23,719 nucleotides of DNA, taken from positions 1-23,719 of IMG/VR virus record IMGVR_UViG_2671180296_000011, one strand, 5' to 3'. A model generated the notes under the pieces. It made no database searches. It was not told the origin of the DNA and saw only the letters and a program-made list of their open reading frames with translations. This DNA comes from a virus (Duplodnaviria; Heunggongvirae; Uroviricota; Caudoviricetes). The position numbers and the translations under genes were made by a program. Positions 7,553 through 12,206 of the stretch are shown in pieces; position 1 is the stretch's first letter, and each line of letters begins with the position of its first letter.

Positions 7553-8272
7553 TTAACGCACCCTGACAATGTTAATTTCAAAATCATCAATATGTCCGCT
7601 ATTAAGTATAACGAATTTCGTACTCCCACTTCTGTACGATTTTGATAACACAAGACGATCATCATAGCGTGCAAGAACGTAATACCAGACATTATCATAG
7701 TGGATCGACTGATATTCCCTCTTAAACTGGGGTTTGTACCAACCGGCAATAAGAGAGAATGTCCAGAAATAAATCATGAATCCAGCCATCATGAACTCAA
7801 TTCGGTGATGGCGAATAAAAGATACTTCCGAAAAGCATTTGACTGAAATAAGTTTTCTTCCTGACCTGACAAAAAGCGTAATTATAAAGACAGCAATAAC
7901 ACAAAAAATAAGCACATCTGGCTCAACGTACTGATGAATGACCGAAAATTCCAGAACAGGTGGAATAAAAAGCAGCAATATTGCCAGAAAAAGTCTGATA
8001 AAACTCAAATTCTGTATATTGTTTTTTTGTTTTATGCCTAAAAAGAAAACAATACCAACACCCCATCCAGTAAGGAATATAACGATAACGGTCACAGCAT
8101 AAAACAAACTTCGGGCCACATCATCAACGCCAGCTCCGACAACCCACCATGGAAAGCCATAGTAAAAGGAAGTACCCCATCCATAGAAATAAGCGCTTCC
8201 CCATCCAAGACAGCCCATATAAGCAATAAAAAGTGAAGAGTTCCTCAGTAGAGTACTGTCATCCATACCCAT
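7553..8272 (-). CDS. hypothetical polytopic membrane protein (239 aa) in AT-rich moron
   Basis: Long ORF in strongly AT-rich DNA. Aromatic/Gly-rich hydrophobic segments (YFYGWGTSFYYGFPWWVVGAG, VTVIVIFLTGWGVGIVFFLGI, LFLAILLLFIPPVL, LIFCVIAVFIITLF, MMAGFMIYFWTFSLIAGW) and a ~60-aa C-terminal soluble tail. Confidence 0.5.
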   Translation of the reverse strand: MGMDDSTLLRNSSLFIAYMGCLGWGSAYFYGWGTSFYYGFPWWVVGAGVDDVARSLFYAVTVIVIFLTGWGVGIVFFLGIKQKNNIQNLSFIRLFLAILLLFIPPVLEFSVIHQYVEPDVLIFCVIAVFIITLFVRSGRKLISVKCFSEVSFIRHHRIEFMMAGFMIYFWTFSLIAGWYKPQFKREYQSIHYDNVWYYVLARYDDRLVLSKSYRSGSTKFVILNSGHIDDFEINIVRVR

Positions 8273-8407
8273 CTCTCTAACAATTTAAAAACATTGACTC
8301 ACCTTACATAACAAAGGAGATTCCATGCAGTCAAGAGACTTCAGAGCAGGAGAAACTCATTGCACAATCGCCATCACGTTTAACGTTATGCACCGCTTTC
8401 CAGATAT

Positions 8408-8436
8408 AAAAAACCCGCTCGATGGCGGGCTGTAAA
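8408..8436 (-). terminator. rho-independent terminator, tR'-like, downstream of candidate late promoter
   Basis: Minus-strand GCCCGC-CATCGA-GCGGGT stem followed by TTTTTTATAT. About 40-70 nt downstream of the candidate promoter. Confidence 0.55.
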
Positions 8437-8478
8437 AATCCTTCTAACGTCAGGCATAAAACGCCCATCGTTAGAGCA

Positions 8479-8506
8479 AATTTACCACAGATTCGGGAAA
8501 AATCAA
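8479..8506 (-). promoter_or_regulatory. candidate late promoter (pR'-like) just downstream of the Q-like gene
   Basis: Minus-strand TTGATT - 16 nt - TAAATT immediately after the Q-like stop. Position matches the lambda pR'-qut-tR' layout. Approximate coordinates. Confidence 0.35.
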
Positions 8507-8511
8507 CAACA

Positions 8512-9333
8512 CTATCGCGTTACCCTCTTTAACTGCCGCTCCGCCCATGCCTCTTCAATGTCAAACCGAACCACCAACGTATCGTAAAAGCGTTTCACTG
8601 ATTTTTTCCATGTATCAAGCGTGATAGCACTCGTCACTTTGCATATGGCATTAAATGCCTCCGTTGATGGCAGTCTTTCATAGCCACGACCGCCACAACG
8701 CCGGCAGTCCCTGATAACAGGCATACCCCGTTTTTCTGACTCTTCACGATGAATGGCAACACCACGCCCACGGCAGTCTTTACAGGCAGTGGAGATCTCT
8801 CCCTTCCCTTTACATTCAGGACAGGAAACTTTCACCACCTCCCGGATTTTTTTCCATTCTTCCCAATAAGACGGATACACGCCTTTTGTGCACTTTGCCC
8901 ATACTGGCGGCTTACCATCCGGATACTGAACCTTGTTTGTAAAAACTTCGCTTTCAATAAATTTTTCCCCACGGCAACAAGAACACTGCTTTTTACTCGC
9001 TGCACTGCGGGCATAATCCTCAAAAGCATACGAAGCCATAATGCGCATCACTGCCGGTTTTATTTCTGCCGGAAGTTTTCTTAACGCCGCCACGCGATCG
9101 CACTGACTTAATGCATAATCTGCCAGTAATTCTGTTGCCCGCGCCCTGTCGTTCATACTAATGCCCATTTTCCCCAGGAACGCAGAAAATCCCATCTCAG
9201 CCCAGTTCTGTGTCATGCCCTGTGCAGCCATCACATCAGTGATACTCAGTGCATCTTTTGATGTCGAGGCGGATGCATCAGTCAGGCCTGGCGATTTCGG
9301 GGAATAGTATTTCGGTAAATCTTCCAGTTTCAT
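8512..9333 (-). CDS. putative late-gene antiterminator (Q position) with four DnaJ-type CxxCxGxG zinc-finger repeats
   Basis: 273 aa with CSCCRGEK, CPECKGKG, CKDCRGRG, CRRCGGRG. Start overlaps the rusA stop (ATGA). Sits between rusA and the pR'/tR'-like elements, as Q does in lambdoid phages. Confidence 0.5.
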   Translation of the reverse strand: MKLEDLPKYYSPKSPGLTDASASTSKDALSITDVMAAQGMTQNWAEMGFSAFLGKMGISMNDRARATELLADYALSQCDRVAALRKLPAEIKPAVMRIMASYAFEDYARSAASKKQCSCCRGEKFIESEVFTNKVQYPDGKPPVWAKCTKGVYPSYWEEWKKIREVVKVSCPECKGKGEISTACKDCRGRGVAIHREESEKRGMPVIRDCRRCGGRGYERLPSTEAFNAICKVTSAITLDTWKKSVKRFYDTLVVRFDIEEAWAERQLKRVTR

Positions 9334-9710
9334 TTTTGGACCTGCCCGTCATGCATTATTTCGTAAATCTTCACGCCCAGCCGACCACCAGGAACGACCT
9401 GACCTCGCACAATATTGATTTCATCAAACTGCTCGTCGTCGATAAGCAACCCCGCATGTGTCAGTGCATCCAGTGGTGCCTTCAGGATATTGTCCAGGTC
9501 ACGACGGCGCTTATCCGGCGGCTCTGCAATAATCTTTATCGCCAGCCTCCCGGACAGGTTTAATTTCAACCGCTGCTGGCGAACAATTAGTGCCACATCA
9601 CGGCGATAACGCTTTCCGGCCTCCGAGATGAAATACGTATTGCCATGACGTCGCCAGTAGGTATTCACCGTCGGCGGGTAAGGCAAAACAAATTCTATGC
9701 GTTCAGTCAT
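9330..9710 (-). CDS. rusA: RusA-family Holliday junction resolvase
   Basis: 126 aa: ...LPYPPTVNTYWRRHG...EAGKRYRRDVA...PPDKRRRDLDNILKAPLDALTHAGLLIDDEQ... matches RusA conserved acidic residues and motifs. Confidence 0.85.
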   Translation of the reverse strand: MTERIEFVLPYPPTVNTYWRRHGNTYFISEAGKRYRRDVALIVRQQRLKLNLSGRLAIKIIAEPPDKRRRDLDNILKAPLDALTHAGLLIDDEQFDEINIVRGQVVPGGRLGVKIYEIMHDGQVQK

Positions 9711-10766
9711 TCATGCTTTCCACTTCAGGACACCCGAATTTCTCGCGTGCATTAAAAAACGAATCAGCAACAACAGCTGGCTGCCGTGTTTTTCTTCAAA
9801 ATCTTTTACCCCGGCGTGCAGTTCGTTATGACATTTACGGCACAGCGGAATAACAAACAAATCATCAGCCTTTGTTCCCATCCCTCCCAGTCCATGACCA
9901 ATGATGTGATGCGGATCATCTGCCTGATTACCGCACGTCATGCATTTCTGCGTTTTTACCCAACGCGTGTATACAGGCATCTCTTCCCGTTGTGGTTTCT
10001 GGCGCTGGAGATATTGAGCCGGTGACTGCGGATCAACGGCAATGCTGACCACCGTCTTTTCCTGTGGCGGGTTTTGCTGGTGGGCGTGAGGCAGCGGCGC
10101 AAGATTTTTTGTGCGCTGCTTCAGTATGCTGGTGGCGGTCTGCTCTCCCGGTACGATGTCGCTTTCACGGTACATTGAGCGGATTTTTTCCGCACGCAAC
10201 CCCAGCGAACGACGTAATACCGCTTCCGGTAGCGCGTCCGCCACCTGATTGCGGACCGCCCACCAGGATAATTCAGCCAAAGATAATTCACGCTCCTGCG
10301 TACCGCTTATTGCGTGACCGATGACGTCAATCATCCATGCTGACAGGTTTTGATGAGCAAGTTGCTCGAGTGATTCGGATGTCTGGTCACGCAGCTGGTT
10401 GTCGCAGTGCCAGCACAACACCATTGCGCCGGTACCATAACGGTGAATGACGGTTTCGCTGTGATGATAATCGCCGTGTGGCCACTGGCAGGATTTAATA
10501 TGGCGCAACAGCCAGTCAGACAATGCACCAGCACCACCAGCAGCACGAATCACCCGTGCGTTACTGAAAAACGGCAGCAATGTTTTGTCTTCCACCAGCG
10601 GCTGGCGAACGGCAGGAACGACCCCGGACGGCAGATTACGCATGCTTTTCGGTTCCGGCTCCACCAATACCCGGGTATTGTGGAATACCGGCATGGATTC
10701 ACGGCCCGGCTTAACGATCACCAGCCCTAGTTCCGGTACCAGAACAGGTCGAAGTAATACCCGCAC
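9711..10766 (-). CDS. YdfU-like (DUF968-type) prophage protein with C-terminal HNH/zinc-binding-like motif
   Basis: 351 aa with C-terminal CMTCGNQADDPHHIIGHGLGGMGTKADDLFVIPLCRKCHNELH. Size and position match Qin YdfU as recalled. Confidence 0.55.
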   Translation of the reverse strand: MRVLLRPVLVPELGLVIVKPGRESMPVFHNTRVLVEPEPKSMRNLPSGVVPAVRQPLVEDKTLLPFFSNARVIRAAGGAGALSDWLLRHIKSCQWPHGDYHHSETVIHRYGTGAMVLCWHCDNQLRDQTSESLEQLAHQNLSAWMIDVIGHAISGTQERELSLAELSWWAVRNQVADALPEAVLRRSLGLRAEKIRSMYRESDIVPGEQTATSILKQRTKNLAPLPHAHQQNPPQEKTVVSIAVDPQSPAQYLQRQKPQREEMPVYTRWVKTQKCMTCGNQADDPHHIIGHGLGGMGTKADDLFVIPLCRKCHNELHAGVKDFEEKHGSQLLLLIRFLMHARNSGVLKWKA

Positions 10767-11625: not shown

Positions 11626-11781
11626 TTACTCCTCAGATTCGTAAGCTGTGAAGACAGCGACCTCCGTCTGGCCGGTTCGGATTCGCACCTCGCAGAGGTC
11701 TTTCCTCGTTACCAGTGCCGTCACTATGACGGTTAAACAGATGACGATCAGGGCGATTAGCATCGCCTTTTGCTGCTTCAT
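11626..11781 (-). CDS. hok: Hok-family type I toxin (51 aa)
   Basis: MKQQKAMLIALIVICLTVIVTALVTRKDLCEVRIRTGQTEVAVFTAYESEE has the Hok/Gef pattern (TM helix, conserved Cys, RxxxxEVAxFxAYES). The in-frame upstream extension in the ORF track is not part of Hok. Confidence 0.8.
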   Translation of the reverse strand: MKQQKAMLIALIVICLTVIVTALVTRKDLCEVRIRTGQTEVAVFTAYESEE

Positions 11782-12206
11782 AGCCTGCTTCTCCTTGCCT
11801 TTCGGCACGTAAGAGGCTAACCTACGTGTGTAGAGCATAGATATGGCCTCAGATTAATGTTAAGCGTCTTGCCGGACGCGTAATGTTAACTGGGGCTTTT
11901 CTCTGTCTGCCTTACGGCGGCATGCCCGAGGCAGACAGCCTCAAGCACCCGCAGCAATTCTACTTAACTATCCTTTTCCCGCAAATCGTTTCTATCATGT
12001 GCACCTTATGTCCCCGTCCTTTAGGACTCGGAGGAGGTCAAGTAACAATGACTTGATCAAGATATATACTATATGTATTCTAAAAAGAATTAATGCTTGT
12101 ACCGTTCAATATGGACTTTAACGTTGAATATTTCTCAAGCGCAAGGAATTTCAAATATATTTAAACCAGAATTACGTTTATACAGGATTAGATAAGGATT
12201 TCATCT

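Follow-up and report, generated by a model that had tools for sequence, protein, structure and literature searches.

What kind of gene stands first behind the late control elements of a lambdoid prophage, and what might its product do? We addressed this question in a 23,719-nucleotide stretch of a Caudoviricetes genome (positions 1 to 23,719 of IMG/VR record IMGVR_UViG_2671180296_000011, hereafter the window), where an open reading frame (ORF) of 239 amino acids runs along the minus strand at 7553..8272 when read from its first ATG. The sequence-only reading from which we started had described this ORF as cargo inserted between the antiterminator gene Q and the lysis genes. The region around the ORF is the late-control region of a lambdoid prophage. 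Our analysis indicates that the gene is very probably a single-gene accessory cassette, or moron, of ~0.8–0.9 kb placed just 3′ of the late terminator tR′, and that it is a member of the TfpB/STM1630 family.

Four features lead to this conclusion: an empty site in a related phage, a direct repeat of tR′ on both sides of the gene, deviant base composition, and the short reach of homology to a plasmid copy. The Stx2a phage Stx2_EH1910 carries a Q 92% identical to that of the window, followed by one tR′ region, a 65-amino acid gene, a methylase gene, tRNAs and stx2AB. No ORF lies between tR′ and the 65-amino acid gene, leaving an empty site at exactly the window insertion point, so that an otherwise homologous phage without the gene bears out the proposal of cargo. 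In the window, an insert of ~906 nt separates the intact tR′ region from its decayed copy. The repeats (families D1 and D2, spaced 906–907 nt, 71–80% identical) comprise upstream copy A, the functional tR′ region at 8366..8443 (minus strand, as are all window features below unless stated), and downstream copy B at 7460..7536, a relic in which both hairpins are lost (fold z = +0.18) and which is probably not a terminator. From ~7482 downstream, copy B is 93% identical to the empty-site phage. The ORF has a GC fraction of 0.383, against 0.484 for Q, 0.515 for the methylase gene and 0.478 for the whole window, which confirms the markedly AT-rich DNA described earlier. On an enterotoxigenic Escherichia coli (ETEC) plasmid, homology to the window is limited to ~8337..7543 (BLAST span 8316..7543), that is, to a promoter motif and the ORF. 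Presence or absence at one site in homologous phages and deviant base composition, both used to recognize morons, were thus found here. With the hairpins of copy B lost, no terminator belongs to the cassette itself, and read-through into the 65-amino acid gene is expected, up to a weak hairpin at 7194..7177.

The cassette also carries a promoter-like motif that moves with the gene. This motif (8305..8334) consists of a −35 element TTGACT (8334..8329), an 18-nt spacer and TGT-TATGTA (8313..8305). The arrangement TTGACT-18-TGTTATGTA is kept 5′ of the gene in six contexts, namely the window, the ETEC plasmid, phage 434, E. albertii, another Escherichia genome and a metagenomic contig. Over the six upstream regions, the consensus is CTCTTGAC(T/G), 17–18 nt, TTTGTTATG(T/A). 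In the ETEC plasmid, the sequence beyond the motif is unrelated to that of the window. The motif resembles an extended −10 promoter with a weak −10, and we regard it as a conserved, putative promoter.

The ORF exists as described, and the gene itself needs a small correction. Translation most likely begins at the second ATG (8266), so that the gene spans 7553..8266 (stop codon TAA at 7553–7555) and encodes 237 amino acids. This assignment follows from three observations: RefSeq/PGAP starts WP_024166254.1, the protein of an identical prophage, at 8266; a Shine-Dalgarno-like AGAGAG run lies 6 nt 5′ of that ATG; and the ETEC-plasmid copy has a GTG at the position equivalent to 8266, with no counterpart of the first ATG (8272). 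Compared with copies 79–90% identical, the ORF shows dN/dS values of 0.14–0.15, with the strongest constraint at residues 1–60 (omega 0.04–0.16). Judged by these substitution patterns, the ORF is under purifying selection and is a real gene. The exact 237-amino acid protein is present on 444 contigs of a large protein collection. The ORF was matched in 1197 of 5426 complete E. coli genomes (~22%), at least 80% of it being covered in 460 of them, and the E. coli chromosome NZ_CP169399.1 is 100% identical to the window over 7400–8550. Lack of conservation, which would have spoken against the first reading, was not seen; the ORF is conserved.

We assigned the protein to a catalogued family by several routes. 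Pfam-A and NCBIfam scans of the protein gave no match, the Pfam-A copy scanned being older than PF27470. PF27470 ('TfpB') is precomputed on all 100 of 100 homologues, including the 90%-identical representative of the exact protein's 90% cluster, and the profile of PHROG 1521 ('unknown function') aligned with the protein across 221 of its 222 positions (E = 3.7e-84). In RefSeq, a copy with 90% identity is called 'STM1630 family protein'. When 1.84 billion representatives were searched with a profile, only 74 relatives emerged. Distant full-length relatives occur in Neisseria, Actinobacillus, Avibacterium, Gallibacterium and Pasteurella, and a genome scan added Moraxella bovis, M. lacunata, M. 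equi and M. oblonga. Remote relatives (E = 1e-6 to 1e-3) were unnamed and matched no Pfam family. No paper on this protein came up in literature searches on PF27470 or on TfpB together with Moraxella or pilin; recent papers that use the name 'TfpB' mean an unrelated Acinetobacter ATPase or a chemical, and no genome annotation paper was found for phage 434.

The family was reportedly first seen decades ago in the pilin inversion region of Moraxella. The M. bovis TfpB and the window protein are homologous over their full length (tblastn, 27.8% identity over 234 amino acids, E = 5e-21; ~258 versus 237 amino acids). They share the motif SS..A(Y/F)L....W..AY.YGWG...Y(Y/H)GYPWW.V followed by (N/D)(I/V)ARSL, as well as a C-terminal Y(K/R)P...Y....YY(V/I)L block. 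The M. bovis homologue is intact; on a 1.9-kb contig, it is flanked on both sides by pilin C-terminal segments in inverted orientation, the pilin inversion region from which the name TfpB derives. The two genes differ in setting: M. bovis tfpB inverts with its flanking pilin segments, whereas the window gene sits behind a phage late terminator with no pilin nearby.

The family shares one architecture of ~235–260 amino acids, in which an aromatic and Gly-rich first transmembrane (TM) helix is followed by four more and by a small beta domain at the C-terminus; full-length alignments, an AlphaFold2 model and positive-inside analysis all returned it. The model, built from 47 diverse homologues (predicted local distance difference test score 80.8, predicted template modeling score 0.73), places helices at residues 5–38, 49–81, 86–113, 118–141 and 157–183 and a five-strand beta domain at 189–234, within a C-terminal domain of ~55 residues. 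Kyte-Doolittle windows gave at least four strongly hydrophobic segments; an N-terminal segment rich in Trp, Tyr and Gly is weakly hydrophobic. The first description, of a polytopic membrane protein whose small C-terminal domain is soluble, is supported, and TM helices, whose absence could have undone it, are predicted. Across the 47 homologues, the K/R-rich loops are 81–93 (net +2.8) and 137–159 (net +2.2), and loops 39–50 and 114–119 are acidic or neutral. This charge distribution places the K/R-rich loops in the cytoplasm, which gives a predicted topology with the N-terminus inside and the C-terminal domain periplasmic.

In this predicted topology, the most conserved parts of the protein meet at the periplasmic face. 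They are TM1, with the motif GWGSAYFYGWG..(F/Y)YYGFPWW; loop 1, which ends D-D/N-(V/I)-A-R-S-L; and the C-terminal block YKP...Y....WYYVLAR. Invariant residues are S12, S13, A17, Y28, Y30, W32, G39, W42, W43, A53, R54, F169, G177 and F220. Enterobacterial members keep the D-D of loop 1 and E108 in TM3, whereas Moraxella, Neisseria and Pasteurellaceae members lack both. We considered an enzyme and rejected this reading: apart from S12–S13, the family has no invariant Asp/Glu/His/Ser set, and this lack of catalytic-type residues argues against an envelope-modifying enzyme.

Upstream of the cassette, Q directly precedes the gene (8512..9333, stop codon at 8514–8512). It encodes 273 amino acids with a PF03589 Antiterm domain (E = 1.6e-49) and a DnaJ-type zinc finger, and is annotated 'antitermination protein' in the identical RefSeq prophage. 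A candidate late promoter pR′ can be read at 8479..8506, with −35 TTGATT (8506..8501), a 16-nt spacer and an extended −10 TGgTAAATT (8487..8479). It falls below the threshold of the consensus scanner, and the region is conserved in Stx2_EH1910. The short late leader (8402..8475) comprises a hairpin (8475..8442) followed by the intrinsic terminator tR′, a G+C-rich stem (8431..8412) with a T-run called by the terminator scan; the segment 8484–8400 folds at −28.6 kcal/mol (z = −3.7 against shuffled controls). In phage 434, a terminator is annotated at the corresponding position behind Q. The gene had been called the first after a pR′/tR′ pair, and it is indeed the first coding sequence after Q and the G+C-rich hairpin, with pR′ itself a candidate placed by position only.

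The pR′–tR′ leader (8402–8484, ~75 nt with two hairpins) matched no Rfam family. It is positionally analogous to the StxS small RNA (sRNA), with a different Q/pR′ allele; Sakai Stx phages produce StxS, a regulatory sRNA, when transcription stops early at tR′ (PMC7547250).

The slot behind Q is occupied in other phages as well. Phage 434 and an O157:H7 prophage carry, in order, LpxR, YlcG, a Q82-like Q, a terminator, a homologue 56% identical to the window protein and DUF3927, and continue on to the holin. Strain A35 has a 90%-identical allele behind a Q82-like Q, and in strain N66 a window-type Q and the gene are followed by four tRNAs and the holin. The two Q families found upstream of homologues share no detectable similarity, and gene alleles are shuffled between them. 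A co-oriented Q lies upstream in 68 of the 78 evaluable IMG/VR loci (87%), at a median gap of 234 nt. In a subgroup of viral contigs (L104–L108 and L120), no Q was found upstream. At a distance of ~1 kb upstream there is a Hok-family toxin ORF (L104, 1782–1994), and the ~1 kb that separates it from the gene seems to be non-coding.

The phage 434 homologue, CPT_434_68 ('putative membrane protein'), is 100% identical in the O157:H7 prophage. Like the window gene, it is the first late-region ORF after Q and a terminator and has a TTGAC...TGTTATG motif upstream. Unlike the window gene, it follows the unrelated Q82-like Q, with LpxR upstream of Q, and is itself followed by DUF3927 'TciB', another small membrane protein and a SASA esterase, where the window has the 65-amino acid gene, the methylase gene and tRNAs. 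In phage 434 and the O157:H7 prophage (L040, 2866–3825; L044, 1172–2131), the gene for LpxR, a lipid A deacylase, is found shortly upstream of Q, on the other strand. In Citrobacter rodentium, where a relative also stands beside LpxR, a split LpxR directly adjoins the homologue (L032, 4863–5823) and no Q is present; this islet therefore looks like the remnant of a prophage segment of the phage 434 type.

Outside prophages, the family is just as common, on plasmids, in chromosomal islets and at the Moraxella pilin locus. On ETEC plasmids, the gene is divergent from eltAB, the genes for heat-labile toxin (LT), with insertion sequence (IS) elements on both sides. On 106 Shigella plasmids, including pWR501 (pINV), it lies between IS remnants, and a Salmonella IncFII plasmid carries a further relative. 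On the Salmonella chromosome, a relative stands beside sseJ; uropathogenic E. coli has a copy beside papX, and UTI89 a decayed one by iroBC. Glaesserella parasuis has a copy convergent with cdtC and cdtB, while Neisseria, Actinobacillus, Mannheimia and Aggregatibacter have copies in housekeeping neighbourhoods. Since the family is common outside prophages, its function cannot be phage-specific. Neighbours differ between all of these contexts, with no partner gene conserved, and we therefore rejected the idea of an operon partner; the gene appears to work alone.

Copies also recur 0.3–2 kb from three periplasmic AB-toxin loci, convergent with cdtC/cdtB (L014, 6982–8355, G. parasuis), divergent from eltAB (L033–L037, 2987–4134, ETEC plasmids) and co-directional with stx2g, with the methylase gene and tRNAs in between (L001, 8947–10188). 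This adjacency may be hitch-hiking in a cargo hotspot or something more, and we give it little weight.

The Salmonella relative beside sseJ is STM1630 (SL1344_1560), as supported by gene order, the 717-bp length of SL1560 (PMC3632133) and the RefSeq family name. It is ~47–49% identical to the window protein and, at 238 amino acids, is likewise encoded by an AT-rich solitary gene in horizontally acquired DNA; RefSeq gives its family name to the 90%-identical E. coli copy behind Q. It differs in being chromosomal, between sseJ and the steB/frmR region with no prophage, and in its upstream region. For STM1630, moreover, a promoter of its own has been mapped, and induction in macrophages and co-regulation with Salmonella pathogenicity island 2 (SPI-2) are reported (10.1101/689075; PMC2639726). 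In regulator-mutant profiling, STM1630 groups with SPI-2 and other virulence genes (PMC2639726). Transcription of the gene begins at a start site of its own with a −10 box whose disruption silences it in ST313 (bioRxiv 10.1101/689075); in macrophage-infection RNA-seq, its expression is lower in ST313 D23580 than in 4/74 (10.1101/689075; 10.1101/450098). Transposon insertions are almost absent from STM1630, a pattern that in the neighbouring sseJ the authors ascribe to H-NS occlusion (PMC3632133).

How does the window gene compare with known prophage accessory genes? Like the lambda-type morons bor and lom, it is dispensable, AT-rich, present or absent at a fixed site, preceded by a promoter-like element and encodes a membrane protein. 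The inner-membrane exclusion proteins P22 SieA, T4 Imm and HK97 gp15 offer a further comparison. No sequence or fold similarity between the window protein and bor, lom, SieA, Imm or gp15 was detected. Unlike lambda-type morons and exclusion genes, the window gene has no terminator of its own and lies inside the late operon, not in the early/immunity or tail-fibre region, and most copies of its family outside E. coli are not in phages.

Overall, we favour a non-enzymatic membrane protein of lysogenic conversion, to which we assign a probability of roughly 40%. Its expression could be dual, and we hold the chances of this to be about even. From the cassette's own sigma-70-like promoter the gene would be expressible in the lysogen, where, by analogy with the AT-rich STM1630, it would probably be silenced by H-NS and induced under particular conditions. 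Late in lytic growth, Q-modified polymerase would read through at high level, the gene lying behind pR′/tR′ with no working terminator. With its N-terminus inside and five TM helices, the protein would display the conserved TM1, the D-D/N-x-A-R-S loop and the C-terminal beta domain at the periplasmic face of the inner membrane. There it would most likely bind a conserved host envelope component, alone and non-enzymatically: the family has no invariant catalytic-type residues and no conserved partner gene, and the near invariance of TM1 and loop 1 from Moraxella to E. coli points to a conserved host target. Solitary inner-membrane proteins borne by prophages most commonly serve to exclude incoming phage or DNA. 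Our leading guess for the consequence of binding, speculative and in itself rather improbable, is superinfection exclusion, in which foreign DNA or phage would be kept from crossing the inner membrane.

Several results weigh against this explanation. We found no experiment or homology tying any family member to phage exclusion, no homology to a described exclusion or defence protein and no PADLOC match. A fold search of BFVD gave no significant match (E ≥ 0.33), and the PDB gave neither a significant fold match nor a sequence match in the profile search. The promoter-like motif, with its poor −10 (TATGTA), was not called by the consensus promoter scan. We looked for diversifying selection in the C-terminal periplasmic domain, as an arms-race protein might show, and saw none (omega ~0.2). 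Many copies reside in stable chromosomal islets of non-phage origin. Truncated or frameshifted copies are frequent (UTI89, PHROG fragment families, M. lacunata, M. equi and M. oblonga), which suggests that the gene is often dispensable. In Salmonella, STM1630 deletion mutants show no confirmed phenotype. Intramacrophage replication is unchanged (10.1101/689075; 10.1101/450098), and the 1.7-fold hypermotility that one screen scored for a deletion (PMC4219756) is missing from the phenotypes that clean deletions bore out (PMC4534456).

A different explanation is that the protein is an envelope factor for host adaptation or virulence, acting in stress tolerance, surface structures or motility under virulence regulators and not in phage competition. 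Its recurrent neighbours at virulence loci (the Stx2g prophage, eltAB, Shigella pINV, sseJ/steB, LpxR in C. rodentium, phage 434 and O157, papX, cdtCB and the Moraxella pilin genes) fit this view, as do the co-regulation of STM1630 with SPI-2 (PMC2639726), its induction in macrophages (10.1101/689075) and the hypermotile deletion in the screen (PMC4219756). The adjacency, however, has no fixed orientation or distance, stx being co-directional, elt divergent and cdt convergent, and it may reflect shared AT-rich horizontally acquired DNA together with the toxin-cargo hotspot of prophages. Macrophage replication did not change on deletion (10.1101/689075), the motility phenotype is absent from those confirmed by clean deletions (PMC4534456), and the family is also present in commensal-type strains and in phage 434 from sewage. 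We consider such a role unlikely on balance. An orphan immunity protein against a membrane-targeting toxin (a pore-forming bacteriocin, or an effector of contact-dependent inhibition or type VI secretion), spread because immunity alone is beneficial, would explain a solitary, mobile, polytopic inner-membrane protein without a partner gene in many unrelated contexts. It would also suit the variable central TM helices and the several alleles per genome (up to four places per E. coli genome, and two loci in Aggregatibacter actinomycetemcomitans strains). Yet no cognate toxin gene was seen beside any copy, no Pfam immunity family was matched apart from a sub-threshold Imm61 hit (E = 0.18) in one remote relative, and near invariance of TM1 and loop 1 across bacterial families is unusual for toxin-specific immunity, which makes this origin quite improbable.

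The name TfpB raises another possibility, that of an accessory factor for type IV pilins or pseudopilins, whose conserved aromatic TM1 would bind, in the inner membrane, the conserved hydrophobic N-terminal helix of pilin-like proteins and so modulate type II secretion or type IV pili. In M. bovis, the founding member has a pilin segment on either side, co-oriented downstream of one of them like a pilin accessory gene, and relatives occur mainly in piliated, naturally competent taxa (Neisseriaceae, Pasteurellaceae and Moraxella). Export of LT, whose genes are neighbours of the ETEC copy, runs through a type II system that contains pseudopilins. Pilin accessory proteins of the TfpY/TfpX/TfpZ/FimB-like type (PMC11841053) resemble the window protein in their 235–245 amino acids, inner-membrane location and periplasmic C-terminus. 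Their genes, too, lie behind a terminator, after pilA, as the window gene lies after tR′ and the M. bovis gene after a pilin segment. However, in TfpY/FimB-like proteins there are three N-terminal TM helices and a large periplasmic domain of mixed beta-sheet/alpha/beta-sheet structure (PMC11841053), whereas the window protein is modelled with five TM helices and a beta domain of ~55 residues, a distinction drawn on architecture only. The pilin linkage that the name implies was not seen here: no pilin was among the ORFs examined around the window gene, and the pilin N-terminal motif was found only in Moraxella loci, with none within 6 kb of the other homologues examined. Moreover, in M. lacunata, M. 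equi and M. oblonga (L007, 6001–6733; L011, 6001–6734; L025, 4037–4722), the tfpB homologue is disrupted by a frameshift or by several stops next to pilin genes that are intact, which argues that tfpB is dispensable for piliation. We regard a pilin role as improbable. Finally, the gene might serve the late phase of the phage itself, in lysis timing, membrane preparation for the holin or protection of the infected cell, and be expressed solely by Q antitermination. In 87% of viral loci it heads the late transcript, and, there being no terminator of its own, it is expected to be co-transcribed with downstream late genes; both points agree with this. Closely related functional Stx phages nevertheless lack the gene, plasmids and chromosomal islets commonly carry it without any phage genes, the promoter-like motif moves with it, and the Salmonella orthologue has its own promoter (10.1101/689075); we judge a purely late function very improbable.

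Along the minus strand, a DUF968/HNH gene (9711..10766) and RusA (9330..9710) precede Q and the ORF, which are followed by a small hypothetical gene, the methyltransferase gene, tRNAs, a TerB-family gene and the lysis genes. The small gene (phrog_331, 7181..7378) encodes 65 amino acids according to PGAP, belongs to the backbone outside the cassette and gives a weak winged-helix TrmB signal (Pfam E = 0.0026). A 106-amino acid ORF at 7181..7501 was considered as a partner gene and rejected, being backbone, present at the empty site and really 65 amino acids long; it is probably an over-extension into the decayed repeat copy B. The first terminator-like hairpin 3′ of the cassette follows this gene (7177..7194, terminator scan; −9.5 kcal/mol, z = −0.4). 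Downstream lies an N6/N4 DNA methyltransferase gene (5972..7030).

ARAGORN reported two tRNA genes in the window, with anticodons CAT and TCT. The CAT tRNA (5856–5931) is Met according to ARAGORN and Ile in the RefSeq annotation of NZ_CP169399.1, and is presumably a lysidine-modified Ile2, as for ileZ of Stx phages; NZ_CP169399.1 has a third tRNA ('tRNA-OTHER') between the two. The NZ_CP169399.1 segment is part of an Stx2g-converting prophage, in which stx2g lies between the tRNAs and the holin. In the window, a TerB-family gene (PF05099, E = 2e-16; 5073–5504) and an STnc100 sRNA match (Rfam, 148.7 bits; 4648–4846) lie between the tRNAs and the holin, at the spot taken by stx2g A/B in the otherwise near-identical NZ_CP169399.1 prophage, which makes the window a toxin-less sibling of an Stx2g phage. 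Elsewhere, Rfam gathering-level matches identified a sok antitoxin RNA of a hok/sok-type module (116 bits; 11776–11950) and DicF (73.8 bits; 18914–18965, plus strand).

As an object, the gene is already known: the family is catalogued and the identical protein is in RefSeq. New, as far as we found, are the filled and empty sites with a duplicated tR′, the conserved promoter-like element, the strong preference for the slot behind two unrelated Q families and the recurrence beside three AB-toxin loci. A broader proposal, which we put forward as rather unlikely, is that TfpB/STM1630 proteins form an unrecognised class of single-gene mobile inner-membrane effectors that bind a conserved envelope machine at the periplasmic face. 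If so, the target could be an inner-membrane platform that serves incoming phage DNA or the assembly of pilins or pseudopilins, and this would explain the Moraxella pilin switch site, the slot behind Q and the AB-toxin neighbours (Stx2g, LT and cytolethal distending toxin). In a bolder variant, the family could aid assembly or release of periplasmic AB toxins. Phage 434 and the Stx2g-type prophage backbone offer natural filled and empty sites. The TfpB/STM1630 proteins are a well-defined orphan family in important pathogens and not a new kind of system. Because the family is widespread (E. coli, phage 434, O157:H7, ETEC LT plasmids, Shigella and Salmonella), a result on its function would annotate thousands of 'hypothetical protein' entries.

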